A model generated the notes under the pieces. It worked only from the letters and a program-made list of their open reading frames with translations. It did no database searches and was not told the origin of the DNA. The translations under genes and the position numbers were made by a program. Positions 4,962 through 63,826 of a stretch of 64,000 nucleotides of DNA are shown one piece after another. The DNA comes from an uncultured bacterium (GTDB lineage Bacteria > Patescibacteriota > Patescibacteriia > CAIQCM01). The first letter of the stretch is position 1; each line of letters begins with the position of its first letter. The stretch is taken from positions 323,740 to 387,739 of the forward strand of contig OY970181.1 of assembly GCA_963708045.1 (NCBI GenBank), in the 5' to 3' direction.

Positions 4962-5039
4962 AAATTAGCCCATTGAGCTATTCTTTAAGCACAACTTAAT
5001 ATTGCCTAAACCGCGCCGATGGCGAGGCATGGCAGAAAT

Positions 5040-5083
5040 CCCATGACAGATACTGAACCCCGCGTTTAGCGTCCTGTCATGGG
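5040..5083. repeat. inverted repeat/hairpin cccatgacag...ctgtcatggg upstream of the recombinase gene
   Basis: Perfect 10-bp arms seen in sequence; candidate recombination site or promoter element. Confidence 0.4.
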
Positions 5084-5133
5084 TAATATTCCGAAAGGAA
5101 TATTTGGCCGCAAGGCCTAGCTAGCGCGGGGCT

Positions 5134-12176: not shown

Positions 12177-12318
12177 GCAAAGCGTTAGCTGTTAATAACA
12201 CCGTGTAAAAAATTTTTTAGATAATACAAAAAATTGTGTTAGAACGGCCTGACACATACCCCTTGAAAATTTGTCACATTTATCATAATCTCCACTTATG
12301 CCCGGGTGGCGTGCGCCC

Positions 12319-12344
12319 AAGGCGCATCCGCCTCAGGCGGAAAA
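12319..12344. repeat. hairpin motif aaGGCGCATCcgcctcaggcggAAAa (copy 1) upstream of tRNA-Leu
   Basis: Paired with the copy at 12494-12519 carrying compensatory substitutions. Confidence 0.5.
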
Positions 12345-12493: not shown

Positions 12494-12519
12494 CTGCACC
12501 TGAGGCGCATCAGCCTCTG
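12494..12519. repeat. hairpin motif gaGGCGCATCagcctctggctgAAAg (copy 2) downstream of tRNA-Leu
   Basis: ccgcc/ggcgg in copy 1 becomes cagcc/ggctg here: C-to-A compensated by G-to-T, so the stem is preserved. Confidence 0.5.
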
Positions 12520-12528
12520 GCTGAAAGT

Positions 12529-13168: not shown

Positions 13169-14320
13169 GAATCCCTAATTTCAGCCATATTTTGATTATT
13201 ACCTTGGCTCTTGACGGATATTTTTGAATAGAGTATTATATCCACATTATCCACAGAGCCCGACATACTATGAGCAGTAACTTAACTCCTAATATGAAAG
13301 CCAGCGGCTAGCCGGATATTTTGTGTCCCAATGCCCGCTGGTTTGCCAGCGGTTTTCTTTTTAGAAAAATCAGTTCGGAAACTTTTTAGAGGGTGGCCCC
13401 TTACAAAAGATTCCGAAAACCTACTTCCGCGGAGGGCGGAAAGAGCAAGTCCGAATTTAGGAACGTTGACAACCAAGCAAAGAGTAATAAATGTAAGTAC
13501 GAATTTTGGTTTCCAAAAGAAATCAAAATTTCAGTTTTGTTAACGTACAAAACTGGAGCATCTAAAAATAACGTCAACGAATTTTTGTGGTTCTCGTCGC
13601 AATGGAGCAATCCAAAGCGACTACCGTCCTAGTATCAGACTGGGACGGATCCAGAATTCTCTGGAAGACATTAAGGGCGTACGGTGGATGCCTCGGCATG
13701 GAATGCCTATGAAGGACGTAGCAGCCTGCGATAAGTCACGGCGAGGTGGCAAGCAACCTTTGACCCGTGAATCTCCGAATGAGGAAACTCAATCCGATGG
13801 AAGATCGGATTATCTTGTGCTGAATATATAGGTACAAGAAGGGAACTCGGCGAAGTGAAACATCTCAGTAGCCGAAGGAAAAGAAAGAAAGGTGCAATTT
13901 TTATATCGCCTTTCGCGATTCACATGTCTTCGGATGTGTGTTCCGCGATCTGCGGTAAAAAGTTGTGCTCATTCCCCTAGTAGCGGCGAGCGAACGGGGA
14001 AGAGCTTAAACTCCAAAGTGTTAAGCATGAAAACGGGTGATATGTCGAAAGATGTGTTATCGCGTATCGTGTGGCGGTTGTAGGGCCTCATATACTATGG
14101 AGTGTTCAGACGTAAGCGTTGTTCGCCTGCATCGAACAAGCAAGGGTTACAAACGATATCTTCCCAAGCAGAACGGCCTGGAACGGCCGGCCATAGACGG
14201 TGACAGCCCGGTACGCGAATGGGGTTATCCCTTTGCAGTTTATGTTCTAGAGTAACACGGGACTCGTGAAATCCTGTGTGAAGTCGGGAGGACTTTCTCC
14301 CAAAGCTAAATACATTCCAC

Positions 14321-14360
<40 letters not shown>

Positions 14361-14980
14361 CAGCCCGGAAGGGCGATGAAAAGTATCTGAAACCGTATGC
14401 TTACAAGGAGTGAGAGTGGATAGCAATATCCATGATCGCGTTCCTATTGAAGAATGAGCCAACGAGTTTGCTGTATGTGGCAAAGTTTAAGCCCGAGAGG
14501 GCGTAGACGTAGTGAAAGCGAGCGTGAAAGCGCGTTCTCACTTATCAACTTTTGCGGTTTACCGCAGAAGTTGTTGAGTGAGTGAGTCGCATACACAAGA
14601 CCCGAAACCGGGTGATCTAGCCATGGCCAGGATGAAGTTTTACGAAAGTAAAATGGAAGTCCGAACACATAAGCTGTGCAACACTTTGTGATGAGCTGTG
14701 GCTGGCGGTGAAATTCCAATCGAACTCGGTAATAGCTGGTTCTCCCCGAAATAGCTTGAGGGCTAGCGTCGGTTAATAACTAATTGGTGGTAGAGCACTG
14801 AATGGGGAACGGTGGAGTGATCCTACGTTTCCCAACCAACCTCCGAATGCCAGTTAGTGTTCCCGACAGTCAGCACGTGGGGGCTAAGCTCCACGGTGCG
14901 CAACGGAAACAGCCGTTGATCTCCAACTAAGGACCTTAAATCTATGCTAAGTGGAAAAGGATGTGGAACGACTCAAACAA

Positions 14981-15011
<31 letters not shown>

Positions 15012-15818
15012 TAAAGAAAGCGTAACAGCTCACTGGTCGAGTTATTCTGCGCCGAAAATATACCGGGGCTAAGCATAGTTCCGAAGTTGAGGGTTCTATA
15101 ATTAACTTTATAGAGCGGTAGGGGAGTGTTTGAAACGCATTGAAGGCGAAGACGTGAGTCCCGCTGGAGTGTTTCGAAGTACGAATGTTGGCATGAGTAG
15201 CAAAAATTGATGTGAGAACCATCAACGCCGTAAGAGGAAGGTTTCCTGGGCAACGCAAATCGGCTCAGGGTGAGGCGATCCTAAGACGAGGCCGAAAGGC
15301 GTAGTCGATGGAAAAGCAGGTTAATATTCCTGCCCCTCAATGGGTCACTACCCAGACTGACGCATCAAAAATACACGGGCGCTCTTTGGTTATGCGCGTG
15401 TCTTAATTGGGCAACTGATTAGGACGCAGTCTGAACCGAAAGGGGAAGACAATCCGTGAATGTATGGTGCCCAGAAAACGTCTGGAGACTATCCTATTGA
15501 GTCCGTACCGTAAACCGACACAGGTCCTCGGGCACAAGTGTGCCAAGGCGGACGAGAGAAACATCGTTCAGGAACTAGGCAAAAAAGTGGCCGTAACTTC
15601 GGGATAAGGCCTGCCCTATCGCAAGATAGGGTCGCAGCGAGCGTCTATGAACCGACTGTTTATCAAAAACACAGGTCCCTGCTAAGTCGCAAGACGATGT
15701 ATAGGGGCTGATGCCTGGCCAGTGTCAGAACGTTAAGGGGAGATGTTGACTCCGCAAGGAGAAGGCATTGAACCGAAGCGCTGATGAACGCCGGCGGTAA
15801 CTATAACCGTCCTAAGGT

Positions 15819-16086
15819 GGACAACACTGCCTTAGTGAGGTAACAGACCTCCTTCGAACTTTGACTAGCCATTGTCAAAGAGGTAGAAGAAAATTTGGCT
15901 ATTTCGGTGAACCTCCTTGTTTAAAAACAAGGACAATACCGAGGCAACCTGCAATGTGCAGAGAGTCCGTAGAGACTACACGCCAAAGTTTAACAATTGG
16001 TTAAATAAGATATAGTCCGAACTGCTTAGTAATAAGCAGAGCGTGATTGAACACCACGCCATTACAAAGTGTAATGTAACAACAAG
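15819..16086 (+). ncRNA. group I intron in 23S rRNA (insertion after CCTAAGGT, E. coli position about 1917)
   Basis: Exon sequence CCTAAGGT | intron | AGCGTAATCCCTTGTCGGGTGAGTTCCGACC matches the uninterrupted 23S; 5' exon ends in T and intron ends in G; conserved group I core elements R (cagagagtccgtagagactacacgcc) and S (aagatatagtccgaac) are present; 268 nt, no ORF. Confidence 0.75.
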
Positions 16087-16369
16087 AGCGTAATCCCTTG
16101 TCGGGTGAGTTCCGACCCGCACGAATGGCATAACGAGTTCATAACTGTCTTGACGATGTACTCGGCGAAATTGCAAGTGGCGTGAAGATGCGCTGTACTC
16201 GCAGCTGGACGAAAAGACCCCGTGAAGCTTTACTACTCCTTGCCATTGGATCATGTTTACTTATGTTCAGCGTAGGTGGGAGCCGCAAGGCGCCAATGAG
16301 ACACCACCCTTATGTTGATATGATTCTTACTGCAAACCGTGAATCCGGTTAGCGGAACAGTGGCTGGAA

Positions 16370-16400
<31 letters not shown>

Positions 16401-16621
16401 CAGTAACGGAGGCGTTTACAAAGGTAGGCTTGGCTCGGATGGAAATCGAGCTCAAAGTGCAAACGCAGAAGCCTGCTTGACTGCGAGGGTGATGGCCCGA
16501 GCAGAGACGAAAGTCGAAGTTAGTGATCCGACGGTCCCTCAGAGGAGGGCCGAAGCTCAACAGACAAAAGCTACTCCGGGGATAACAGGCTGATCTTGCC
16601 CAAGAGTCCATATCGACGGCA

Positions 16622-16681
<60 letters not shown>

Positions 16682-16738
16682 TGGCTGTTCGCCAATTAAA
16701 GCGGTACGTGAGCTGGGTTCAGAACGTCGTGAGACAGT

Positions 16739-17114
16739 GAGAATACCCGCGCTGTCTAAAAATCAGATCCAAGTCGCAATTCACAAGATGCGAAAGGATT
16801 CCGGTGTTGTCGCAAGATAACACTGGAGCTAAATGCTGGAAAATCTGGTCCGATCTTCTTTGGAGAGAAGATCAAAGAACTCGCACTAGTCGCGCAAGCG
16901 ACTGACAACGTGACGAGCGCAGACAATCAGCAGGAAAGGTTCTTCCATTACACGTAGAACAATCAACAATGGAAAGAAAATCCTCAGAGACTACACGCCT
17001 GATAGCTAGAAACCCCTAGTGAAAGATATAGTCCGAACTCTATGGCGACATAGAGAGTGCATCAGAAATGATGCGCCGGTTCAAAATTTATTTTTTGAAT
17101 TCGCAACATAATTG
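16739..17114 (+). ncRNA. group I intron in 23S rRNA (insertion after GAGACAGT, E. coli position about 2593, the I-CreI-type site)
   Basis: Exon GTCGTGAGACAGT | intron | TCGGTCTCCTATCC; intron ends in G; R (cagagactacacgcc) and S (aagatatagtccgaac) elements shared with the first intron; 376 nt, no ORF. Confidence 0.75.
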
Positions 17115-17550
17115 TCGGTCTCCTATCCACTGCGAGCGTTGAAACTTGAAGGGATGCTTCCCTAGTACGAGAGGACCGGGAAGCACGAACCTCCCGTGTA
17201 CGTGTTGTCCTACCAAGGGCATGGCACGGTAGCGGAGTTCGGAGGCGATAAGCGCTGAAAGCATCTAAGCACGAAGCGCCCCCTAAGATTAGGTTTCGTT
17301 ATAGACTCCTCGGAGACGACGAGGTTGATAGGCAGTAGGTGTAAGGCCCGCAAGGGTTTGAGCCGAGCTGTACTAATCGGTCGAGTTCTCCAGGGAACTC
17401 TGGTAAAAAATCAGAGAACCACAAAAACGCGCTGAAGTTATTTCAGTTGCCGTACTTTACATTTAGTGAATATCGCGTCTTTTTTGATACGGTATTTGCG
17501 AACCAACGAGCGTAGCAGCGTCTTCGTTCTGTTATAAAATAAGTTCAGAG

Positions 17551-17670
17551 TCTTGGTGACCCAACCGCACTGGTCACACCCGTTCCCATCTCGAACACGG
17601 CAGTTAAGCAGTGCAGGGCTGATGATACTTGGGGCCAACCCGTCCCTGGGAAAGTAGGCCGTTGCCAAGA
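17551..17670 (+). rRNA. rrf: 5S rRNA
   Basis: TTGGTGACC...GGTCACACCCGTTCCCATCTCGAACACGGCAGTTAAGC...GGGAAAGTAGG...GCCAAGA; flanking processing stem aagttcagagtc/gaccctgaactt. Confidence 0.85.
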
Positions 17671-26016: not shown

Positions 26017-27280
26017 ATGGTGAATATGGAAACAATTATTGACCTGCACATCCACTCAAAATATTCGCGCGCCTGCTCTAAACTTTTGGAGCCGGCCAAT
26101 TTGGCGCTTTGGGCCGACAAAAAAGGCATTAATGTTTTAGGAACCGGCGACTTTACACATCCGTCGTGGCTAAAAGAACTTAAAGAAAATTTGACCGAAG
26201 ACCAGTCTGGACTGTTTAAATTAAAAAACGGAAATGCCAAAGCGCGTTTTATGCTTACGACCGAGATTTCGTGCATTTATAAACGCGGCGGCAAAACGCG
26301 GCGCGTGCATAATTGCATTTTTGCACCGTCGTTTGCGGCTGTTGATTTAATTATTGCCGAACTTACAAAACGTAATTGCAATTTAAAGTCGGACGGACGT
26401 CCGATTGTTGGTTTGGACTCAGAAGAGCTCTTAAAGATTGTTCTTGAAGCCTCGCCAAATTGTATGCTCGTGCCGGCGCACGCCTGGACGCCGTGGTTTG
26501 CGATTTTTGGTTCTATGTCCGGTTTTGATTCGCTTGAAGAATGTTTTGGTGAAAATAAAAAACATATTTATGCCATTGAAACTGGTCTTTCGTCTGACCC
26601 GCTAATGAATTGGCGGCTTTCAAAACTGGACGACGTCCTGCTTGTCTCAAATTCCGACGCTCACTCGCTTGGCAACCTTGGCCGCGAGGCAAATGTTTTT
26701 GATATCGCGCCGGAAAAATTATCTTATGCGGAAATAATTAGAATTCTTCGCGAAAAAGATCGCAAGAAATTTTTGTACACGATAGAATTTTATCCCGAAG
26801 AGGGGATGTATCATTTTGATGGCCATCGCGTGTGCAAAAAAAGAATGCATCCTGAAGAAACGGCAAAAAATAACGGCCTTTGTCCGGTTTGCAAAAAACC
26901 GGTGACGGTCGGCGTGTATTCGCGTGTCGCCAAGCTCGCCGATCGCGTTCGAGGGGACGCGGCCGCCCGGAATGGTGCCGTTTAAAAGCATTGTGCCGCT
27001 AGACGAAATTATCGCCGAAGCGCTAGACCGCGGCGCGGCGACCAAAGGCGTGCAAACAATTTACGAACAAATGGTTGGCAGGATGCCAGAATTTAAAATT
27101 TTACTTCACGCTCCCTATGACGAGATTATGTCGTTTGCACCGCCTGATGTTGTTAGCGGAATAAAACGCGTGCGCGAAGGAAAGTTGCAAATAGAACCCG
27201 GCTATGACGGCGAATACGGAACCGTAAAAATTTTTTCCGATTCCGAAAGAAAGAAAATGGAACAAGCGAAGTTGGTGTAA
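26017..27280 (+). pseudogene. EndoQ-like PHP-domain endonuclease (TIGR00375-like), interrupted by a +1 frameshift near 26940-26985
   Basis: N-terminal ORF (26017-26985): DLHIHSKYS PHP motif, LVPAHAWTPW, CPVCKK...GVYSRVAKLADR zinc finger. C-terminal ORF (26924-27280, other frame): ...FEGTRPPGMVPFKSIVPLDEII...PGYDGEYGTVKIF. The two overlap by 62 nt. Confidence 0.6.
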
Positions 27281-27452
27281 TAACTAATATCTAATGTCTA
27301 ATACCTAATCCGTTGGCGTCATCCCGAGGAGTGAAGCGACGAGGGAGCTCAACGTCTCTAAGCAAGCTCCGTGATTCCTCGTCAAGACAAAGCGACTAGA
27401 CGGACTCAAAATGACGGCGGATTAGACATTAGACATTAGATATTAGGTATTA
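27281..27452. repeat. low-complexity palindromic intergenic element with ctaat-repeat arms (aatatctaatgtctaatacctaatccg ... cggattagacattagacattagatattaggtatt)
   Basis: Family members at 39785-39895, 54541-54678 (3' arm missing), 37836-37912 (tagagat-type), 61543-61600 and 62668-62732 (aactttt-type). Confidence 0.65.
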
Positions 27453-27484
27453 AAAAATCCCCCGCGGGAGCGGAGGATTTTTAG

Positions 27485-36858: not shown

Positions 36859-37833
36859 TTAAAAATTTATTTTTTTAATTTTGACGCTATTGATTTCGCG
36901 AACCGAAGGCCAACTTTTGAGAATTCCGACTTTGGCGCCCATTTGTTGAACAACGGCCGTGGCGTTTATTGTACCCAAGGCAAGGGCGGTGCGAAGATCG
37001 CCGTTTTTAATAAAACTGGCGGCAAAGGCCGAGCCAAAGGCGTCGCCCGCGCCAGTAAGATTGCTTCGTTTTACGGGAATGATCGCCGCGTGGGTAACTT
37101 CGTTTGGCGTAATCGCGTAGGCGCCAGCACGGCCATCGGTTAAAACGGAAAGCGGGCAGATTTTTCTCAGGCCGTTTACTAGTCCTTTTAAATTTTTTAC
37201 GGGAAGGCCGGTCAGTGCGGCAGTTTCTTCACGATTCAGGATAATCATATCCAGTTCAGAAAAAAGTTTTGCCGTTTTTTTAAGGCCAAGGCGCAGTTCG
37301 CCGCCGCCTGGATTCATAAAAACTTTGGCCTTGGTGTTTTTGGCGCGAGAAATAATTTGGCGAAGCAAATTAAGATTGCCGGACAGGCCGGAAACGTAAA
37401 AAAGTTGCGCATTTATTTTGCTCCAGGGGATTTTATTTTCCGAAAGCATTGAAGAAGCACCGCGGTGGGTAAGGATCGTCCGTTCGGCGACACCCGAAAG
37501 GATAATGACCGAGAATCCGGTTTTGTCGCGATCGGTTCTTTGAATAAACTCGGTGCTAATTCCGTCGCGTTTCATTGCGCGAATAATATCGTCGGCCGGC
37601 GCGTCCGTCCCGACCGAAGTCACGACCGCTGTTTTCATCCGCGCCATTCGCGAAAAAGTCGCCGCGTTGTTTGTTCCGCCGCCGCCCGTTTCAATCAGCA
37701 TCTCCTCAACGTCAATTTTTGCGCCAAAAGGAAAACAGGCCTCCATAATGCCATGCTCGCGATGGAGTTCCATTTGTTTAGAACGAAGAAAAACGTCCTG
37801 CGTCGCCGCGCCAAAAGTGATGATGTCAAACAT
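36859..37833 (-). CDS. PfkB-family carbohydrate kinase
   Basis: C-terminal TGAGDAFGSAFAASF anion-hole motif; N-terminal GGGGTNNA. Confidence 0.75.
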   Translation of the reverse strand: MFDIITFGAATQDVFLRSKQMELHREHGIMEACFPFGAKIDVEEMLIETGGGGTNNAATFSRMARMKTAVVTSVGTDAPADDIIRAMKRDGISTEFIQRTDRDKTGFSVIILSGVAERTILTHRGASSMLSENKIPWSKINAQLFYVSGLSGNLNLLRQIISRAKNTKAKVFMNPGGGELRLGLKKTAKLFSELDMIILNREETAALTGLPVKNLKGLVNGLRKICPLSVLTDGRAGAYAITPNEVTHAAIIPVKRSNLTGAGDAFGSAFAASFIKNGDLRTALALGTINATAVVQQMGAKVGILKSWPSVREINSVKIKKINF

Positions 37834-37917
37834 ATTAGAGATTGGAGATTAGAGATTGGAGATTAGAAGACGGTGGATGGCTTCAACATTCTAATTTCAA
37901 ATCTCTAATTTCTTTTT

Positions 37918-39776: not shown

Positions 39777-39931
39777 ATATTTGAATATCTAATGTCTAAT
39801 ATCTAATTTCTAATCCGACCAGCCGGAAACCCCGCGTCTCGGGGTGACGGCAACGGATTAGATATTAGGTATTAGTTATTAGATATTAAGTAATTATTAT
39901 ATCACAAAACCCCGACGCTGCGGGGTTTTGG

Positions 39932-40897: not shown

Positions 40898-40955
40898 AAT
40901 TTTATTTTTTAAACTAAACCCTAAACCATAAATCCTAGACCCTAACCTCTAACCC

Positions 40956-41816
40956 CTATTGATTTTCTGAAATAATTTTTCCGCCAAGCGTTCGGAGTTC
41001 GTTAAGCGCTTTTTCGGCTTGTTCGGCGTTAGGAATAATGCCGTGCCATTCAAATTTGTATTCCATAAAGTCCACGCCCTTGCCCGCGATGGTATGCGCG
41101 ATAATGCAGGTGGGACGATCTTCGGTTGCTTTGGCTTCTTCAATCGCTTCAACAAATTGTCGAATGTTGTGACCGCCAACTTCTATAACGCGCCAATTAA
41201 ACGCTTCGTATTTGGCTTTTAACGATTCAAGCGGCATTACTTTTTCGGTCGGCCCGTCAATTTGAATATTATTGCGGTCAATAATAACGGTTAAATTGGA
41301 AAGTTTGTAAGCGCCGGCAAAAAGCAAGGTTTCCCAAACAATGCCGCAGTCTTGTTCGCCGTCGCCCATCACGCAATAAGTGCGCCAGCTTTTGCCGTCC
41401 ATCCGCGCCGCATAAGCCATACCGGCGGCTTGGGCAATACCTTCGCCAAGGGGTCCTGAGGTTGTTTCAAGGCCGGGGAGGTGTAGGCGTTCCGGATGTC
41501 CCTGAAGCCGAGAACCAAATTTTCGGAGCGTGAGCAGTTCTTTAACGGGAAAATATCCAGCTTCGGCCATTGCTGCGTAACGAACCGGACAAATATGGCC
41601 AGCCGAAAGAATAAGGCGGTCACGTTCCGACCACTCTGGATTTTTTGGGTCGTGATTTAAAACGTGAAAATAAAAAGCCGCAAAAACGTCGGCCATGTCC
41701 AAAGGTCCCGCCGAGTGTCCGCTTCCGGCCGCAACCAGCATTTTAATAATGTCCTCGCGAATCGTGTTGGCCTTGGCTTCTATCGCAAGGACTTTTTTAT
41801 CGGTCAGATCAAACAT
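40956..41816 (-). CDS. transketolase, N-terminal subunit (TPP-binding)
   Basis: GDGEQDCGIVWE and HTIAGKG motifs; 286 aa. Confidence 0.8.
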   Translation of the reverse strand: MFDLTDKKVLAIEAKANTIREDIIKMLVAAGSGHSAGPLDMADVFAAFYFHVLNHDPKNPEWSERDRLILSAGHICPVRYAAMAEAGYFPVKELLTLRKFGSRLQGHPERLHLPGLETTSGPLGEGIAQAAGMAYAARMDGKSWRTYCVMGDGEQDCGIVWETLLFAGAYKLSNLTVIIDRNNIQIDGPTEKVMPLESLKAKYEAFNWRVIEVGGHNIRQFVEAIEEAKATEDRPTCIIAHTIAGKGVDFMEYKFEWHGIIPNAEQAEKALNELRTLGGKIISENQ

Positions 41817-44160: not shown

Positions 44161-47100
44161 TTGCCAAAAAACGGTAATTTAACCTCTTCCCATCGGTATA
44201 AAAAATTATATATGGCCATCCCAAAATTTCCCGAACTTGAAGAGCAGATTCTTAAAGATTGGGATAAAAACGATATTTTTAACAAAACTTTGGCAAAACC
44301 CTCGCCAAAGGGGAATTTTATTTTTTTTGAAGGTCCGCCGACCGCGAACGGCAAGCCTGGCATTCACCACCTAATTGCCCGCCACTTTAAAGATGTCATC
44401 TTGCGTTATAAGACGATGAGTGGTTTTCACGTTGAACGAAAAGCCGGTTGGGACACGCATGGTCTTCCGGTTGAAATTGAAGTTGAAAAAAAACTTGGCT
44501 TTAAAAGCAAGCGCGACATTGAGGAATACGGCATCGCCGCTTTTAACAAACAGTGTCGCGAATCCGTTTGGCAGTTTAAACAGGCTTTTACCGAATTTAC
44601 CCACCGCTCCGGCTATTGGTTGGATTTAGAGCATCCGTATATCACCTACGATCCTAATTATATGGAAACGCTTTGGTGGATCGTTAAAAAAATAAATGAT
44701 CGCGGTTTTCTTTATGAAGCCAATCGCGTCGTGCCGCATTGTCCGCGTTGTGGAACAACGCTTTCGTCGCACGAACTGGCACAAGGGTATGCCGAAACCG
44801 AAGACACTTCTGTTTTTGTGCGCTTTAAAATTTTGGATGAGCGGTTTCCAAACACGAGTTTTCTTGTTTGGACGACGACGCCGTGGACGCTGCCCTCAAA
44901 CGTCGCTTTGGCTTTGGGTGAGAAAATTTCGTATTCGCTCATTGAACTTGCAGCGGGCGAGCGGCTTTTGCTCGCGACTGATCGGCTCGGCGTAATAGAC
45001 GGCGAATTTAAAAAAATATCAGAACATACCGGCAGTGAACTTGCGAATATTTCTTACGAACCGCTTTATAATTTTATTTCCTACGACGAAAAGAGTCATT
45101 ATACGGCTTTGGCTGATTTTGTTTCCACAACCGACGGCTCAGGCATTGTTCATATCGCGCCAATGTATGGCGCCGATGACTTTGCTTTGGGCGCGAAATT
45201 AAAATTGCCGGAAAAACATTTAATTAGCGAGCGCGGCGAATTTATGGAGGCGGTTAAGCCGTGGGCTGGAATGTTTGTTAAAAAAGCCGACCCGCTGATT
45301 ATTGAAGACCTTGCGAGCAGCGGCAAACTTTATAAAACAGAAAAAATAAAACACGAATATCCATTCTGCTGGCGCTGTAAAACGCCGCTCATTTATTATG
45401 CCAAGCCGTGTTGGTACTTTAAGACAACAGCGGTTGCGAGCGAAATGATCAAGGCCAACGAAACAATAAATTGGGTGCCGGAGCATATTAAGGAAGGGCG
45501 CTTTGGCGAGTGGCTTAAAGGTGTAAAAGATTGGGCGCTCACCCGCGAGCGTTATTGGGCAACGCCGCTTCCGGTTTGGAAATGTGCGGACGGTCACGTG
45601 ACCGTAGTTGGGTCGTATGATGATTTGGAAGAAAAACGTTTTACCGCCCCAGCACGACTTTTGCTAATGCGCCACGGCGAAGCGGAAAGCAATGTTTTGG
45701 ATATGATTGCAAGCGGCGAAGCTGGGCGCAAGGCGGATTTAACGGAACAAGGCGTTAAGATGGCCAAGTCAGCGGCAAAAAAATTAAGCAAAGAAAAAGT
45801 TGTGGCGATTTATGCTTCACCTTTTATGCGCACCAAAGAAACGGCTGAGCTGGTGGCAGAGACGCTTGGTCTGCCGGTTATATTTGACGACCGGCTTCGT
45901 GAAATAAATTCTGGGGCAATGGATGGAAAAACGGTTAAAGAATTTTACATCGCTTTTCCCGAGCCGTCCGACCGTTGGACGCACGCCCCTGAAGGCGGGG
46001 AAAATTTTTCCGAAACTAGAAAACGGATGATGGCTTTTGTTCGTGAAATAAACCTGAAACACGCAGGCGAAACCGTGCTTGTTGTCAGTCACGGTGACCC
46101 GCTCTACATTTTAGACTGTGTTTTTAACCGCGTGCCAGACGATAAGCTTAAAGAATGGCGCTATCCGGAATTTGCCCACCCAACCGAAGTAATCTTGCCA
46201 AACTGGCCAATAAACGACGATGGCGAGCTTGATCCGCATCGCCCTTATATTGATGAAATAAAAATTAAATGCGACAAATGCGGCAAAGAAGCGGCGCGCG
46301 TAAAAGACGTGATGGACGTGTGGTTTGATTCGGGAGCAATGCCGCTTGCTTCGTGGCATTATCCGTTTCAAAACAAAGAGCGCATAGACAAAGGCGTGTC
46401 GTTTCCCGCTGATTATATTTCTGAAGGCATTGACCAAACACGCGGTTGGTTTTATACGATGCTCGCGGTGTCAACATTGCTCGGCTACGACGCGCCGTAT
46501 AAAAATGTCATCACCCTAAATATGGTTTTGGACAAAAAGGGTTTTAAAATGTCCAAGTCCAAAGGCAACATCGTTGAACCGCAAAAGATTTTTTCCACTT
46601 TCGGTTCCGACGCCTTGCGTTTTTATTTCTTTTCCATAAATCAGCCGGGCGACTATAAAAAATACGACGACAAAGACGTGGACGCGGTCGTAAAAAAAGT
46701 TTTTCTTATCCTTTGGAATACGATGGAGTTTTGGAAAATGTCTAAAGACATGGACCATGAATCACGCACCATGGACCATGAACATATTATGGACGCTTGG
46801 CTTAGGTCGCGCACTGGAATACTCGTGAAGACGGTGACAGAAGAATTGGAAAAATATCATCCAACCGAGGCGAGCCGTGCCATTGCCGAATTTGTTAACG
46901 AACTTTCCACGTGGTATGTACGCCGTTCGCGCGATCGTCTGCGCACTGGCGCTTCCACCGAACCGCTCAAGGACGCGCTTATGACCGTCGCCAAACTGCT
47001 TGCGCCGTTTACGCCGTTTGTTGCCGAAGGACTTTACCGTGAACTTGGTGGAGAGCTGGAATCGGTCCACCTTTGCGATTGGCCGGAATATAAGGAAAAA

Positions 47101-47646
47101 GAAATTGACGCGGAACTTTTGCATGATATGGAAAGTATCCGCAAGATTGTTGAACTTGGTCATTCACTTAGGGACGACGCGCAAGTTAAATTGCGCCAGC
47201 CGCTTGCTGAATTTGAAATAGAAAAATTATCGCTCAAAAATAACGATGAATTGCTTCCGATTATTGCCGAAGAACTTAATGTCAAAGCTGTTCGCATTGC
47301 CGACAAAATTGAAGAGCGACAAAATTGGTTAAGCAAAACAATGTCTGGCTTTACTGCCGCCTTGCGCACCGAAATAACCACCGAGCTTAAACGCGAAGGA
47401 ATGCTTCGCGAGATTATGCGTCAGATAAATGATTTGCGCAAAGAAGCCGGGCTCACTGTTTCTGATCGCATTAAATTATATTTTGACGTTGATGATGTCA
47501 CGCTTAAGTCAGTGCTTACGACGGAAAAAGAACATTTGGCAACCGGTGCCCGCGCCGACGAAGTCGTCTTTGAGCCAACGGATGCCGCGCTTGCTCGCGA
47601 ATTGGAATTTGAAGGAGTGAAGGTTAAGATCGCGATTAAAAAGTAG
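44161..47646 (+). CDS. ileS: isoleucyl-tRNA synthetase (type 2) with an embedded histidine-phosphatase (phosphoglycerate-mutase-like) domain
   Basis: HIGH-type motif PGIHHLIARHF, KMSKSKGN, editing-domain and anticodon-binding regions. Between WKCADGHVTVVGSYDDLEE and LDPHRPYIDEIKIKCDKCG lies about 190 aa with LLLMRHGEAESN...LTEQG...IYASPFMRTKETAE...VLVVSHG (RHG phosphohistidine motif). Probable start at MAIPKF (about 44212). The ORF is continuous in one frame. Confidence 0.8.
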   Translation: MPKNGNLTSSHRYKKLYMAIPKFPELEEQILKDWDKNDIFNKTLAKPSPKGNFIFFEGPPTANGKPGIHHLIARHFKDVILRYKTMSGFHVERKAGWDTHGLPVEIEVEKKLGFKSKRDIEEYGIAAFNKQCRESVWQFKQAFTEFTHRSGYWLDLEHPYITYDPNYMETLWWIVKKINDRGFLYEANRVVPHCPRCGTTLSSHELAQGYAETEDTSVFVRFKILDERFPNTSFLVWTTTPWTLPSNVALALGEKISYSLIELAAGERLLLATDRLGVIDGEFKKISEHTGSELANISYEPLYNFISYDEKSHYTALADFVSTTDGSGIVHIAPMYGADDFALGAKLKLPEKHLISERGEFMEAVKPWAGMFVKKADPLIIEDLASSGKLYKTEKIKHEYPFCWRCKTPLIYYAKPCWYFKTTAVASEMIKANETINWVPEHIKEGRFGEWLKGVKDWALTRERYWATPLPVWKCADGHVTVVGSYDDLEEKRFTAPARLLLMRHGEAESNVLDMIASGEAGRKADLTEQGVKMAKSAAKKLSKEKVVAIYASPFMRTKETAELVAETLGLPVIFDDRLREINSGAMDGKTVKEFYIAFPEPSDRWTHAPEGGENFSETRKRMMAFVREINLKHAGETVLVVSHGDPLYILDCVFNRVPDDKLKEWRYPEFAHPTEVILPNWPINDDGELDPHRPYIDEIKIKCDKCGKEAARVKDVMDVWFDSGAMPLASWHYPFQNKERIDKGVSFPADYISEGIDQTRGWFYTMLAVSTLLGYDAPYKNVITLNMVLDKKGFKMSKSKGNIVEPQKIFSTFGSDALRFYFFSINQPGDYKKYDDKDVDAVVKKVFLILWNTMEFWKMSKDMDHESRTMDHEHIMDAWLRSRTGILVKTVTEELEKYHPTEASRAIAEFVNELSTWYVRRSRDRLRTGASTEPLKDALMTVAKLLAPFTPFVAEGLYRELGGELESVHLCDWPEYKEKEIDAELLHDMESIRKIVELGHSLRDDAQVKLRQPLAEFEIEKLSLKNNDELLPIIAEELNVKAVRIADKIEERQNWLSKTMSGFTAALRTEITTELKREGMLREIMRQINDLRKEAGLTVSDRIKLYFDVDDVTLKSVLTTEKEHLATGARADEVVFEPTDAALARELEFEGVKVKIAIKK

Positions 47647-47690: not shown

Positions 47691-48161
47691 ATCGCTAAGC
47701 CCTTGACAAAACTGTGGATAAGTGTTATACTACTTCTTGTAAGGATGAACGACCGCCAATAAATTGAAAATTTAGGGAGAGAGACCCAAGGCCAATGGGA
47801 AAAAATGGCCACCTGATTCAGGCATAAGCCTAATCAAAGGACGCATTTGTTGTTGTCTCTAAAGACGAATACAAATGCGTCCTTTTTATTTTCCACGGGC
47901 GACGTGCAACGTGCCACGTGCCAACTCGCGACGACAGATGAGGAGAGGGAACGCTTGAGCAAACTCGCCTTCGGCGATCAGGCTCGGTGCGGCGTAAGGT
48001 ATGATTTGAATCGGTCTAACTGATTCGCTTCAACCCCAAGCCATTAACGGTGCTCGCTCCGGCGAAACACCTTCATTCCCTTTCTAATCCGTCTTCGTGA
48101 AACATTGAAGTGATTTTCTACCGGCGACTTAGTCGTCGGGAACAGTTTTCGGGAGGGTCAA

Positions 48162-54538: not shown

Positions 54539-54681
54539 TATCCGAATACCTAATATCTAATTTCTAATACCTAATCCGTTGGCGTCATCCCGAAGAGCCG
54601 AAGCGATGAGGGAACTCAAAGTCTCTTAATATGCTCCGCGGTTCCTCGCCGAGCTGAGCTCGTCGGAATGACGGCTTAAAT

Positions 54682-55659
54682 ATGTTTCGTGAAATAATTG
54701 ATCAAAAAGAATGGAACGAATTGTATTCCCAGGCCATTTCGGCTTCGGGAAAATTTTTACAATCTTGGGAATGGGGCGAATTTCAAAAATCCTGCGACCG
54801 AAAAGTTTACCGACTCTCAAACGACGGCGCAATCGCTCAGATTATTGAATTGCCGTTGCCGTTTAATAAAAAATATTGGTTTTGTCCGAAAGGCCCTCTC
54901 ATGAACCATGAACCACGTACCATGAACAATACGTTTATTGATGAATTAAAAATATGCGCAAAAAAGGCGGGAGCGGTTTTTTTGTGTATTGAGCCAGCAG
55001 ACGTTATTGCTAGTGGAGGAAGTCAATCCCATGACAGAAGTCCAAGGGCGACAAGTATCGTTGATCTTACAAAATCCGAAGACGAGCTGCTTTCCGCAAT
55101 GCACCAAAAGACACGTTATAATATTAAAGTCGCCGCCAAGCACGGCGTCGTAGTTGGTTCATGGTCTCAGCCAAAGGCTGATCCGCCTCGGGCGGACATG
55201 GTTCATGGTTCATTTGATCACGTGTGGAATTTATTTTCAGAAACGGCGGCGCGCGATGGTTTTCACTTGCACCCGCGCGAATATTATGAAAGGCAGATTA
55301 AAATGCCGAACATTGAAGTGTTTATTGCCGAGTGTGAGGGAAAAATTCTAGCTGCGGCTGTTGTTATATTTTCTAACGGCGTTGCGACATATTTGCACGG
55401 TGCGTCGGCAGGCGAAATGCGTAATGTAATGGCGCCATACGCGCTGCATTGGGAAATTATAAAAAATGCCAAAGCGCGAGGTTCTATAAAATATGATCTT
55501 TGGGGAATTTCCGACGACCCCAAGTCTGGCTGGGCGGGGATCACTCGCTTTAAGCGCGGTTGGGGCGGGGTAGATTTTAGTGCACCCGGCACCTATGACT
55601 TGCCCGTAAGTCGTTTCTGGTATAGCGTTTACACGTTAGCACGCCGGTTGCGTTTTTAA
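54682..55659 (+). CDS. FemAB-family peptidoglycan-bridge peptidyltransferase carrying in-frame repeat insertions
   Basis: FemAB fold pattern (W..GWGGVDF..., KYDLWGI); ccatgaacc-type repeat at 54901-54930 and its inverse with an inner hairpin at 55156-55214. Confidence 0.65.
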   Translation: MFREIIDQKEWNELYSQAISASGKFLQSWEWGEFQKSCDRKVYRLSNDGAIAQIIELPLPFNKKYWFCPKGPLMNHEPRTMNNTFIDELKICAKKAGAVFLCIEPADVIASGGSQSHDRSPRATSIVDLTKSEDELLSAMHQKTRYNIKVAAKHGVVVGSWSQPKADPPRADMVHGSFDHVWNLFSETAARDGFHLHPREYYERQIKMPNIEVFIAECEGKILAAAVVIFSNGVATYLHGASAGEMRNVMAPYALHWEIIKNAKARGSIKYDLWGISDDPKSGWAGITRFKRGWGGVDFSAPGTYDLPVSRFWYSVYTLARRLRF

Positions 55660-60393: not shown

Positions 60394-61533
60394 CTAACGA
60401 GTGGAAAAAGCCCGTTTATACCCAGTTTGGGTAAGCTGGGCGGTTTTTGACCAAGAAAAGGTTTGCGCGCGGGCTTTTGCTGCCGATAAAATTGTCGTTT
60501 TATAGTCCGTTTCGGTCATTATTTTATGGTAGGCGTTTACAAAACCGCTAACGTCAGACGGATTTATGAGCGGAATGGTATTTCCCAACATTTCTCGCGA
60601 AGTATCAATTGCCGAAGCAATAACTGGAGTCTCGGCAAGGGCGGCCTCAAGCGGCGGCAAGCCAAAACCTTCAACTTGCGAAGTAAAAATAAGCGCGTTC
60701 GCGTTTTTGTATAAATTTCCAAGCTCGGCGTCGGAAACTAAGCCGACAAAATTAACGCGATTAAGATTATCGCCAATTATTTCTGCGGCTTGTTTTTTTA
60801 GTTGTTCGGCAAAAGCGGGGTCAGTGCCGGCGATGACAGTTGTTAGCTTTTGGTCGCTAGTCATTAGTTCTTTGGCAACCCTAAAGAATGTTTCCATATT
60901 CTTGTGCGGATAACCGGAACCAACGGACAAAATGTAGGGAGTGAGCGGATACCCCTCACCCGGCCTTCGGCCACCCTCCCCCATTTTTGGGGGAGGGTTA
61001 TAAGGAAATTGATCAACACCGTTTGGGGTGACGAATATTTTCTCTGGGGAGACTTTAATGTTCCGCAAGATGGAGTTTTTGGCGCTCTCGGAAACAGTGA
61101 ACACAATTTTTGCCCGCTTGGCATTTTCCGAAACAACAAAACGGTAGAAAAAATATTTAAACCAATATGCAATCGGGTTAAGGGTTGTAGAAGCAAGCGC
61201 TGGATGCTCCCAAAGAATCATATCGTGAATGGTAATGGCGAGTGGGGTTTTTAACCAAAGCGGCGCGTTCCAATGCGGTACGTGGATGAGGTCAAGTTTT
61301 TCTGCGTCAAAAATTTTTCCAAGTTTTGTTTGTTCGGCAAGCGTATACCAACGAATGTCGGTAATAATGGTTTTCATTTTTGGGGGCACCAAAACCGCGG
61401 CTTCTTTTCGCGTAAAGACCGTATATTCATTTTCGTTGTCTGATTCGGCAAGATGGGCGAGCAGTCGTTCCGCGTAGCGTCCGATACCGCGACTATTTGG
61501 CCCCATCAGGCGGGCGTCAATCCCTATTTTCAT
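60394..61533 (-). CDS. GT4-family glycosyltransferase containing an in-frame GC-rich hairpin repeat
   Basis: EGFGLPPLEAALAETPVIAS motif; residues FPYNPPPKMGEGGRRPGEGYPLTPYI are encoded by the 60948-61000 repeat. Confidence 0.75.
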   Translation of the reverse strand: MKIGIDARLMGPNSRGIGRYAERLLAHLAESDNENEYTVFTRKEAAVLVPPKMKTIITDIRWYTLAEQTKLGKIFDAEKLDLIHVPHWNAPLWLKTPLAITIHDMILWEHPALASTTLNPIAYWFKYFFYRFVVSENAKRAKIVFTVSESAKNSILRNIKVSPEKIFVTPNGVDQFPYNPPPKMGEGGRRPGEGYPLTPYILSVGSGYPHKNMETFFRVAKELMTSDQKLTTVIAGTDPAFAEQLKKQAAEIIGDNLNRVNFVGLVSDAELGNLYKNANALIFTSQVEGFGLPPLEAALAETPVIASAIDTSREMLGNTIPLINPSDVSGFVNAYHKIMTETDYKTTILSAAKARAQTFSWSKTAQLTQTGYKRAFSTR

Positions 61534-61591
61534 AACTTTTAACTTTTAACTTTTAACTTTTGATTGCTTCCTAAAAGTTAACAGTTAACAG

Positions 61592-62665
61592 TTAAAAGTT
61601 TTTTATTGTCTTCACCGTCTCTGCGGCGCATTTTTCCCATGAAAAATTTTTGACGCGCTCGTAACCACGGCTTATTAAAGTTTGTCGTAGATTGTTATCG
61701 CTCAAAACTTGATCAAGTGCTTCGGCAAAAGCGCCAGTGTCTCTTGGGTTTAAAAGAATTCCAGCGTCGTGAATAGTTTCTGGGAGAGCGCCGACCGACG
61801 AAGCAACGACGGGTACGCCAGCAGTCATTGCTTCTAGCGCGGGAAAGCCAAATCCTTCGTAAAATGAGGGAAAAAATAAGGCTCGCGCGTTTCGTAATAG
61901 TGCGCCTTTTTCTTCTTGAGTGACTTGACCGAGAAAGTGGATTCTGTCCGGGTGGTTCATGGTATATGGTACATGGTTCATTTGTCGTGGGCCGGCAAGG
62001 ACAAAATGGATGTCTTTGTTTTTTTGCGCGAGCAGGTTAAAGGCGGCTAAGGCCGTTTGAATATTTTTTCGCGGTTCAATAACGCCGAGGAAGAGGATGT
62101 AGGGGAAAGAGGGCGACATTCCGTGGGGATTGTGCAACGAAGATACAACCGGCGGCACGCCTGGCGGGATTACGGCGATTTTTTCCGTAGGGACTTTTAG
62201 TAGCTCGGTTAATTCGCGCGCCGTGTGACTAGAAAGGGTGATGATTTTGTCGGCGCGGGCAATTAATTTTTTTGTGTTAATTGCGCGGTGCCAAAGTCGC
62301 TCCTTTGCCGAATACCACGATGGATTAACTAAAAAAGAAAGATCGTGAACCGTTAAAATAACTCGTGCCGTTTTTTTAAACGACCAAAAATTAAGGTTGG
62401 GCAGCCAGACAGTTGGTGTTTCTAAATATTCATCAATTTTTGGATAATTTAAAAATGCGAGCGCGGCGTTTGCTAATTTACTGGGGAGAAATAATTTTTT
62501 GGTCGCGATTTTAAAATTTGGCGCGTGAGCGCGGAGCGAAACAAGGCCGCAAAATTGATTGGCGTCGTTTTGTTTTGTTAACTCAGAAATAAGCGGCGCG
62601 GCATACGCCGAAACGCCGCGGCTGGTTTTGTCTTGGAGCGAACGGAGGTCTATCCCTATACGCAT
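61592..62665 (-). CDS. GT4-family glycosyltransferase containing an in-frame ggttcatgg-type repeat
   Basis: EGFGFPALEAMTAGVPVVAS motif; QMNHVPYTMNHPDR encoded by 61953-61980. Confidence 0.75.
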   Translation of the reverse strand: MRIGIDLRSLQDKTSRGVSAYAAPLISELTKQNDANQFCGLVSLRAHAPNFKIATKKLFLPSKLANAALAFLNYPKIDEYLETPTVWLPNLNFWSFKKTARVILTVHDLSFLVNPSWYSAKERLWHRAINTKKLIARADKIITLSSHTARELTELLKVPTEKIAVIPPGVPPVVSSLHNPHGMSPSFPYILFLGVIEPRKNIQTALAAFNLLAQKNKDIHFVLAGPRQMNHVPYTMNHPDRIHFLGQVTQEEKGALLRNARALFFPSFYEGFGFPALEAMTAGVPVVASSVGALPETIHDAGILLNPRDTGAFAEALDQVLSDNNLRQTLISRGYERVKNFSWEKCAAETVKTIKNF

Positions 62666-62722
62666 AACTTTTAACTTTTAACTTTTAACTTTTGTTGCTT
62701 CCTAAAAGTTAACAGCTAACAG

Positions 62723-63826
62723 TTAAAAGTTGCCGTTAAATTTGGTATATTCCCTCTCCACAAACTCGGAAATATTTTTGTGAAAATTTTGCGTTGAAAA
62801 TTGTTCGGCGTGGTTTCTGATTGTCATCGCGTCGTACTTGCTCGCGTCAAAATTGAGCAAGCGGTCGGCCAGCGTTTCCCAATCTTGTTCATCAATTAAT
62901 TCGCCAGAAAGGCCGGGGATGACGGTTTCCAGAGCGCCGCCCGCGGCATACGCCAAAACCGGTCGTCCGGCCGCCATTGCTTCAACAACCGTGATGCCAA
63001 AGTCTTCTTCTTGCGGATTTATAAAGGCGAGGCAATTATTATAGAGTTCAATTTTTTCTTTGTCGGAAACCGCACCCAAAAATTCTACCGTGCCCTTGGC
63101 GCGATTTTTTAAATCATTAAGCGCTGGGCCATCGCCGAAAACTTTTAGCGGCAAGCCGAGCCGCGAGCAGGCGTCAACGGCAATGTCAAAACGTTTGTAA
63201 TTGACAACCCGTCCGCCGATTAAAAAATATTCGCCCGGTTTGCCCGTAATGGAAAATTTTTTAACATCAACCGGCGGATAAATTAGCGTGGAATCGCGAC
63301 GATAGTATTTGGAAATACGCCTGGCGACGGTTTTGGAATTGGCGATAAAACTGTCCACGCGATCGGCGGCAGCTTTGTCCCAAAGGCGCAGGTTGGGGAG
63401 GAGTGAGCGGACAACGGCTTTAACCAATGGGCCGTGGCGCAAGTCGGCGAGGTACGAGTGTGTGTCTGACCAAAGGTAGCGCGTCGGCGTATGGCAATAA
63501 CAAACGTGCAAAGTGTGGTCGCCTGTGATAACGCCTTTGGAAAAAGCCGAGGTTGAAGAAATAACCACGTCAAAAGCGGAGAGGTCAAAACTCTCCGTGG
63601 CTTTGGGCATGAGCGGCAAGAGCCATTGATAGTGAGCTACGCCGCCGGGAATTTTCTGGAGCCAGCTTGTGCGAATGTCTTTTCCTTTGAACATCGCGTT
63701 TGCTTTGTCCTTGTCGTTGAAAAGGACAAAGGTTGGCGCTTTGGGATAAAGATTTTGCAACTCAAAAAGAGTTCGTTCCGCCCCGCCGTCTTGTGCCAGA
63801 TAGTCGTGAATCAACGCTATTTTCAT
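62723..63826 (-). CDS. GT4-family glycosyltransferase
   Basis: EDFGITVVEAMAAGRPVLA motif. Confidence 0.75.
   Translation of the reverse strand: MKIALIHDYLAQDGGAERTLFELQNLYPKAPTFVLFNDKDKANAMFKGKDIRTSWLQKIPGGVAHYQWLLPLMPKATESFDLSAFDVVISSTSAFSKGVITGDHTLHVCYCHTPTRYLWSDTHSYLADLRHGPLVKAVVRSLLPNLRLWDKAAADRVDSFIANSKTVARRISKYYRRDSTLIYPPVDVKKFSITGKPGEYFLIGGRVVNYKRFDIAVDACSRLGLPLKVFGDGPALNDLKNRAKGTVEFLGAVSDKEKIELYNNCLAFINPQEEDFGITVVEAMAAGRPVLAYAAGGALETVIPGLSGELIDEQDWETLADRLLNFDASKYDAMTIRNHAEQFSTQNFHKNISEFVEREYTKFNGNF

Follow-up and report, generated by a model that had tools for sequence, protein, structure and literature searches.

The 64-kb stretch analysed here, referred to as the window (positions 323,740 to 387,739 of contig OY970181.1, assembly GCA_963708045.1), belongs to the 1.19-Mb genome of an uncultured member of the Patescibacteria, and window counts given below cover that stretch. 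It was found to carry four copies of a short repeat, here designated the ATGAACC family, in three unrelated genes: ileS, encoding isoleucyl-tRNA synthetase (IleRS), a gene for a FemAB-family peptidoglycan bridge transferase, and a gene for a GT4 glycosyltransferase (Table 1). All four copies are inside open reading frames (ORFs). The segments in ileS, in the FemAB gene (site A) and in the GT4 gene are present, with their peptides, as quoted in the initial annotation, which had described them as short palindromic repeats inserted in frame; a fourth, inverted copy in the FemAB gene (site B), parted by a 30-nt insert, had been overlooked.

Heptanucleotide arrays in three coding loops and their orthologues

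Tandem Repeats Finder (TRF) assigned period 7 to the ileS, FemAB site A and GT4 sites, with 4.0-4.6 copies (4.6 in ileS), and the motif is a tandem array of heptanucleotides, (ATGAACC)n, with about 4-5 units in 28-35 nt; it is neither a palindrome nor a net insertion. The forms CCATGAACC and GGTTCATGG, which had been taken for palindromes, are mutual reverse complements, each site having a single orientation, and the ileS and GT4 segments fold no better than shuffled sequences (z -2.0 and +1.07, respectively). The pattern ATGRAYCATG-N8-ACCATGRAC matched the window at three places, with one additional overlapping match, against a chance expectation of 0.08, and none of 100 shuffled windows reached four matches; the shorter ACCATGRAC had seven matches against 0.55 expected.

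As 7 and 3 are coprime, three units (21 nt, seven codons) restore the reading frame, and the encoded peptide, M-N-H-E-P-x-T-M-N-H, has a period of seven residues. That this peptide stems from shared DNA and not from protein homology, as the initial annotation had proposed, was confirmed: one heptamer unit with the same codon usage in its copies is found in three unrelated proteins, and at site B it is read from the opposite strand (GSW...MVHGSF). A Met/His-rich metal-binding or regulatory peptide, convergent in the three proteins, was considered as well, since M-x-H repeats resemble copper-binding Met/His motifs and copper-handling genes (a P-type ATPase with an HMA domain and a cupredoxin) are nearby. 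The identical codons and the copy on the opposite strand argue against it, as do orthologous loops with unrelated peptides (IQDSRFKIH, TPYSLLPTP, TKNQEP, GPWSMVHGP) that have only their encoding by 7-nt repeats in common. On the strength of these peptides the metal-binding idea was rejected, and a protein-level motif is hardly credible.

A perfect (ATGAACC)3 would read M N H E P stop. In the window arrays TGA is replaced by CGC, CGT or TAT; elsewhere, the orthologous locus L083 has TGG at the position of the in-frame stop, and TAA is likewise avoided in L002. A stop-free sense consensus unit was found in 63% of the arrays within long ORFs, versus 29% of the unit/strand combinations in non-coding arrays (p = 7e-5). 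Because the deviating unit is the one whose perfect form would give an in-frame TGA (or TAA), the arrays are translated and under selection against stops.

The arrays sit in variable surface loops that are present in all homologues, and add no length to them. Solved structures of IleRS, FemX/FemA and GT4 enzymes can be aligned across the segments with no gap on the side of the homologue, whose residues there are equal or more in number, and distant Patescibacteria orthologues have ordinary variable loops of equal length at all three sites; the proposed insertion is thus contradicted. Clean empty sites for the ATGAACC arrays were not found among the homologues compared. Conserved EFWKM and H-I-M-D-x-W-L motifs flank the loop in IleRS, and the segment 46750-46785 encodes (K)DMDHESRTMDHEH. 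As modelled with AlphaFold, the FemAB protein (mean pLDDT, the predicted local distance difference test score, 90.2) has the arrays in the two loops of lowest confidence, at residues 71-83 and 161-177: site A is in a loop before the helix 83-95, where pLDDT dips to 74, and the loop of site B has the lowest pLDDT of the model. The synthetase itself contains an inserted histidine-phosphatase domain (His_Phos_1, RHGE) at about residues 505-700, common to all 120 best homologues, which are all of the Patescibacteria type.

At the DNA level, orthologues from about 55% identity up have heptamer arrays in the same loops, partly of the ATGAACC-type family and partly of other units (Table 1). Site B is an uninterrupted array in the orthologues, with units GGTCCAT, TGTCCAT or CGTTCAT. 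GT4 orthologues have MNHEPWTMD (MNHEPWTMDH in P0242), MNDERWKMD and MDNEQWTMN at the same place, the FemAB orthologue P0008 has MNNEQWTMNN, and further orthologous loops read MDNGQWTMDN, RSSFIVHRSF, TPYSLLPTP and TKNQEP, as heptamer repeats would encode. According to the initial annotation, orthologues in distant lineages with the peptide at the same position would make it part of the protein family. In part such orthologues exist, the same or an equivalent peptide being present at 57-74% identity, and the cause is still at the nucleotide level because these peptides are likewise encoded by heptamer arrays.

Table 1 Features of the window and of related loci, with the repeat units found at orthologous sites.
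Feature	Source	Position	Strand	Unit, content or remark
Host gene ileS (IleRS with inserted His_Phos_1 domain)	window	44209-47646	+	
Host gene, FemAB-family peptidoglycan bridge transferase	window	54682-55659	+	
Host gene, GT4 glycosyltransferase	window	61592-62665	-	
ileS variable-loop heptamer array	window	46750-46784	+	ATGGACC ATGAATC ACGCACC ATGGACC ATGAACA; encodes MDHESRTMDHE(H)
FemAB site A heptamer array	window	54901-54928	+	ATGAACC ATGAACC ACGTACC ATGAACA; encodes MNHEPRTMN(N), residues 74-83
FemAB site B array, left part	window	55156-55166	-	GGTTCAT GGTC on + strand = ATGAACC-family units on - strand
FemAB site B array, right part	window	55197-55213	-	CAT GGTTCAT GGTTCAT on + strand
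GT4 heptamer array	window	61954-61981	-	ATGAACC ATGTACC ATATACC ATGAACC; encodes MNHVPYTMNH
30-nt double mini-hairpin	window	55167-55196	+	TCAGCC-AAA-GGCTGA / TCCGCC-TCG-GGCGGA; clean insert between GGTC and CAT of one unit; encodes (S)QPKADPPRAD
30-nt element variants flanking tRNA-Leu	window	12312-12341, 12495-12524		
Further 30-nt element copy	L083	12869-12898		
Further 30-nt element copy	L134	12854-12883		
Further 30-nt element copy	L131	1408-1437		
Further 30-nt element copy	L001	2418-2447		
Intergenic composite, period-7 class	window	27278-27454		(CTAATnn)4, ~105-nt core, inverted (nnATTAG)4
Intergenic array	window	37830-37868		ATTAGAG/ATTGGAG x5; abuts start codon
Intergenic hairpin	window	39783-39892		(CTAATnn)4, GC-rich core, (ATTAGnn)4; RNA fold -48.9 kcal/mol, z -8.0
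Intergenic array	window	40914-40958		(CTAAACC)6
Intergenic array, downstream of ileS	window	47893-47926		(CCACGTG)4
Intergenic array, upstream of femAB	window	54541-54577		(CTAATnn)4, then 105-nt core
Hairpin between two GT4 genes	window	61528-61603		(AACTTTT)4 + (TAAAAGT/TAACAGT)4; fold z -5.5
Second copy of this hairpin, between next two GT4 genes	window	62659-62731		(AACTTTT)4 + (TAAAAGT/TAACAGT)4; fold z -4.3
~105-nt structured element	window	27310-27420, 54576-54680		each after (CTAATnn)4
23S rRNA gene	window	13661-17395		split by two group I introns (15809-16039, 16729-17055)
5S rRNA gene	window	17552-17670		
LOOT RNA	window	5003-5118		
Large serine recombinase gene	window	3585-4961		
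IS200-type Y1 transposase gene	L131	86-520		
Small reverse transcriptase gene	L001	255-1160		RVT_1, 301 aa
Reverse transcriptase homologue	L030	172-948		
FemAB site A unit	L001 (74% aa identity)			ATTCAAG x4
FemAB site A unit	L002			ATGGACG x4
FemAB site A unit	L132			GATGAAC/GACGAAT
FemAB site B unit	L002			TGTCCAT x4
FemAB site B unit	L132			TCGTTCA x4
FemAB site B unit	L130			ACCAAGA x3
ileS loop unit	L083			ATGAACA/ATGGACA
ileS loop unit	L002			ACGACTA
ileS loop unit	L134			CTACTCC x4, perfect
ileS loop unit	L133			ATGGACA-type
GT4 loop unit	L001			(TGTCCAT)3 TGTTCAT

The IleRS proteins of L134 and L133 are 87% identical, with 61-62% identity at third positions, and their loop arrays are unrelated and 21 nt apart in length. 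Arrays are therefore sometimes replaced and not slowly mutated. Orthologue length differences at the arrays were 0, 21 or 30 nt only.

Unit variants are specific to the genome and shared across unrelated genes. Loci L001 and L083, which derive from the same metagenome sample, are syntenic and have 72-85% nucleotide identity in aligned blocks, were treated as one relative. The unit reads ATG[A/G]ACC at all four window sites versus ATG[A/G]ACA at three sites of this relative, the seventh base being concordant in 10 of 12 pairs (permutation p = 0.0015). In the sampled loci as a whole, a unit (at most one mismatch) was common to 21.5% of the pairs of arrays separated by more than 500 nt within one genome, and to 8.4% of the pairs between genomes (p = 1e-9).

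The likeness to Rickettsia palindromic elements (RPEs) seen in the initial annotation holds inasmuch as a multicopy, dispersed family is read in frame in unrelated genes, and fails in that the arrays are neither inserted nor palindromic. An element of the RPE type, or a miniature inverted-repeat transposable element, would be short palindromic DNA that transposes in frame into ORFs and is kept as extra peptide. This would account for the occurrence of some 28 nt of like DNA on either strand and in three genes that are unrelated; the genome-specific unit variants fit bursts from a master copy, the complete difference of arrays between close relatives looks like replacement, and a true 30-nt mobile insertion exists in frame in the same loops (see below). 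Such an origin of the arrays is nevertheless rather unlikely, as there is no net gain in length over near or distant homologues at the three sites and empty sites were not found, the arrays are tandem, and no inverted partner was found within 600 nt of the ileS and GT4 copies. Moreover, a perfect copy would bring a TGA, which the three window copies avoid in different ways, and a tblastn search with the IS200-type Y1 transposase of L131 gave no match in the window.

Period-7 arrays in the window and across Patescibacteria

About 16 period-7 arrays of 4-6 copies were recorded by TRF in the window, 12 of the 16 being intergenic. A lag-autocorrelation scan for stringent arrays yielded eight with period 7, one with period 14, which is a multiple of 7, and none with the remaining periods from 3 to 13 or with period 15, and dinucleotide shuffles gave at most 0.05 arrays at any period in the same scan. 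CTAATnn units occur at four loci, as do ATGAACC units; two loci have AACTTTT/TAAAAGT, and CTAAACC, CCACGTG and ATTAGAG were each seen at a single locus. The arrays outside the ATGAACC family are in intergenic spacers, often as inverted pairs that give very stable predicted hairpins (z -4.3 to -8.0).

These stable folds favour an alternative in which the arrays are functional RNA or DNA structures, namely hairpin arms that act as terminators, in translational coupling or in mRNA stability, FemAB sites A and B forming a long-range mRNA stem. The predicted A-B duplex indeed has -35.8 kcal/mol against -18.7 +/- 2.3 for shuffled arrays (z -4.1 for the whole segment), and the two sites are inverted also in L002 and L132. 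In L130, however, A and B contain one unit in direct orientation, so that no stem is possible, and site A of L001 (ATTCAAG) has no complement at site B. A conserved FemAB A/B mRNA stem thus lacks support and was rejected, and the relation of the two sites reflects shared family membership. The ileS and GT4 arrays are solitary, and no Rfam family overlapped any array of the window; on the whole a structural role as the reason for the arrays is improbable.

The (CTAAACC)6 array, which resembles plant-type telomere repeats, is situated between two transketolase halves. In L083 the genes for these halves abut without a spacer and the array is absent; as the two genes abut there, the array represents a true gain of about 58 bp. 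Two near-identical AACTTTT hairpins occupy the spacers of three consecutive GT4 genes, with one arm overlapping the upstream stop codon and the other abutting the downstream ATG, and a role of these hairpins in translational coupling or mRNA processing is suggested. A structured element some 105 nt long (CCGTTGGCGTCATCCCGArGAG...ATGACGGC) occurs twice, each time after (CTAATnn)4 and in the first copy also followed by an inverted array; it had no Rfam family match at the gathering threshold. Other features of the window are a 23S rRNA gene split by two group I introns and followed by a 5S rRNA gene, and a LOOT RNA that adjoins a large serine recombinase gene (Table 1).

The phylum-wide control consisted of 80 Patescibacteria loci (1.2 Mb; FemAB identity 34-43%) from among the matches listed in the FemAB profile scan. 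They contained 53 period-7 and 17 period-8 arrays, and at most five of any other period from 4 to 12. With L001, L002, L083 and the window added, 28 of 84 sequences had at least one stringent period-7 array. Long ORFs contained 52 of the 108 arrays of the sampled loci, and 22 arrays were found within 86 FemAB genes, clustered at residues ~78-84, 106-122 and 153-192, which are loops as in the window. Loci L049, L046, L042 and L065 have period-8 arrays in place of or beside those of period 7 (in L049, for instance, AACATGAG x3 and its inverted partner), and the register of the repeat may depend on the lineage. A metagenome-wide scan for ATGRACCATG-N7-ACCATGRAC returned 46 stretches, almost all of them unrelated low-complexity or chance matches, and gave no census of the family. 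Searches of the literature for heptamer repeats or for palindromic elements inserted in frame in this radiation were without relevant result, and in the papers searched neither the arrays nor the 30-nt element was found described for Patescibacteria.

The 30-nt double mini-hairpin

The insert that parts the site B array consists of two 15-nt mini-hairpins with the consensus [TCCGCC-nnn-GGCGGA][TCAGCC-nnn-GGCTGA]. It is missing from site B of the orthologues L001, L002 and L132. Site A of L131 has a homologous element, identical at 26 of 30 positions, which likewise breaks the unit at ATG^GAC and is oriented identically with respect to the unit. In IleRS of L083, L134 and P0139 further copies are inserted in frame at one and the same codon (…GGE[LG]^ES…), where they encode SAQGGPASG[RW]; they are absent from the sister IleRS proteins of the window (86% amino acid identity to L083) and of L133 (87% to L134). 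The L083 and L134 copies are identical at 29 of 30 nucleotides, versus 49% identity at the four-fold degenerate sites of these genes (p = 3e-8). In the window, variants of the element flank a tRNA-Leu gene.

Thus, the element has the presence/absence distribution at identical sites and the conservation far above neutral by which small mobile elements are recognised, which makes it a candidate site-specific mobile element of very small size. RPEs are palindromic insertions of about 100-150 bp that add 30-50 residues to the host protein. It is the 30-nt element, and not the heptamer array, that is the RPE-like in-frame insertion here, at one-fifth of the RPE size. As in RPEs, the arrays present a nucleotide-level repeat that is translated at surface loops of unrelated, even essential, proteins without destroying them; they differ in being 28-35 nt long, tandem and non-palindromic and in adding no length, so that the double hairpin, though far smaller, is the better functional analogue.

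Like the repetitive extragenic palindromic (REP) sequences and their doublets (REPINs), which are associated with tyrosine transposases (RAYTs), the 30-nt element comprises short GC-rich dispersed hairpins that are sometimes doubled (PMC3116915), and in L131 a Y1 transposase gene of the IS200 type adjoins ruvA-femAB. Unlike the element, REPs are extragenic (PMC3116915); no homologue of the Y1 gene was found in the window, 64 kb of the 1.19-Mb genome, and the terminal hairpins of the L131 IS200-type TnpA (CCCGGGC-GTAA-GCCCGGG) differ from the 30-nt element, so that a link between the L131 transposase and the element is unconvincing. In L001 a small reverse transcriptase gene adjoins ruvA-femAB and a homologue is upstream of femAB in L030, while none was found in the window.

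Small dispersed repeats of Nostoc punctiforme, reportedly described by Elhai et al. in 2008, are said to be hairpin-forming elements of 21-27 nt with presence/absence polymorphism in a heptamer-rich genome. The 30-nt element would behave similarly to them as so described, with no known sequence relation, and differs in being in frame in coding DNA, with two of its insertions at an identical point of the heptamer unit.

In the FemAB orthologues P0006, P0008, P0016, P0017, P0019 and P0028 (alignment A1, columns 150-185) the loop 106-122 contains other translated inserts derived from repeats, such as VIASEAKQS, GETLPCKVSPCVQGFAL and DPTSLSLRGAS, which suggests that the clade has more families of small elements inserted in frame.

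Origin of the arrays and relation to known repeats

Heptameric simple sequence repeats (SSRs) of Nostoc and Xanthomonas are over-represented, have a genome-specific unit, often occur as inverted pairs and vary among close relatives, and polymerase slippage has been proposed for them (PMC4692102); they include the short tandemly repeated repetitive sequences (STRRs) of the heterocystous cyanobacteria Calothrix and Nostoc and the GGGAATC repeats of Xanthomonas (Mazel 1990 and Mrazek 2007, as cited in PMC4692102). The arrays described here resemble them in the 7-nt unit, the few tandem copies, the dispersed genome-specific families and the inverted hairpin pairs (PMC4692102). At least three head-to-tail 7-nt copies, an excess of period 7 and genome-specific families were all found for the window arrays; the ATGAACC copies, however, are intragenic and translated. 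The repeats of Nostoc and Xanthomonas are described as intergenic, whereas about half of the arrays sampled here are in frame inside ORFs, including the essential ileS, and at orthologous loops across the phylum. Differences are also seen in the host, a member of the Patescibacteria (candidate phyla radiation) with a genome of about 1.2 Mb, and in the many unit families that coexist.

The best explanation, with a probability of roughly 0.6, is that the period-7 arrays are STRR-like heptanucleotide microsatellites that evolve in concert within tolerant loops and spacers. They would arise and persist by mutation in a 7-nt register, through polymerase slippage or misaligned repair within arrays, and short-patch gene conversion between arrays of one genome may keep their units alike, resulting in concerted evolution. 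Purifying selection would confine them to tolerant protein or DNA and veto stop codons and frameshifts, and now and then an array would be replaced wholesale by a new unit family. In their behaviour the arrays are like neutral or selfish DNA with a diversifying effect on loops, and they also host the separate 30-nt element.

Several points weigh against this explanation. Slippage by one unit is barred in an essential ORF, since 7 nt shift the frame, and the origin or in-frame swap of a perfect four-unit array, as in ileS of L134 (CTACTCC x4), is left unexplained by it. Gene conversion between loci over about 28 nt is assumed, and the extent of the family was judged from 64 kb of the 1.19-Mb genome. 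A difference of +21 nt that resembles three extra units was seen in P0130/L133 only; the loop of L083, longer by seven residues, was likewise considered as three extra units, which is only partly true, much of it being a GC-rich stem.

As one-unit slippage is barred in essential genes, a templated copying mechanism is a live alternative. It is possible, if only tentatively proposed, that an active, sequence-agnostic process with a 7-nt register (8 nt in some lineages) operates in Patescibacteria, overwriting unconstrained DNA including the loops of essential genes, homogenising arrays genome-wide and replacing them episodically. It might be templated, by a polymerase, repair or reverse-transcriptase activity, and the arrays might serve as landing pads for the 30-nt element at ATG^GAC. 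Phase-variable contingency repeats, in which slippage by one unit would switch genes off and on, were also considered, since heptanucleotide SSRs are reported to mediate phase variation in Haemophilus. This reading is extremely improbable here: one of the hosts is the essential ileS, the arrays have no more than 4-5 units, are imperfect and are in mid-gene, and orthologous lengths differ by multiples of 3 nt only.

The shared peptide of three unrelated proteins is thus explained as spurious, which calls for caution before peptides of this kind are taken for homology or inserted domains. A repeat class whose known examples are mainly intergenic repeats of cyanobacteria and Xanthomonas abounds in the ultra-small Patescibacteria genomes, where it is tolerated, translated and turned over in essential enzymes. 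From this turnover it follows that the loop sequences of IleRS, FemAB and the glycosyltransferase are set by the dynamics of DNA repeats and not by protein selection. The genome-specific units, together with the wholesale replacement between relatives that are 87% identical, suggest copying or homogenisation between loci. Among candidate site-specific mobile elements with in-frame insertion, the 30-nt double hairpin is one of the smallest. If it exists, the 7-nt-register process would represent a way, so far undescribed, in which minimal genomes diversify loops, and would offer a tractable model for the unsolved origin of the cyanobacterial STRRs.

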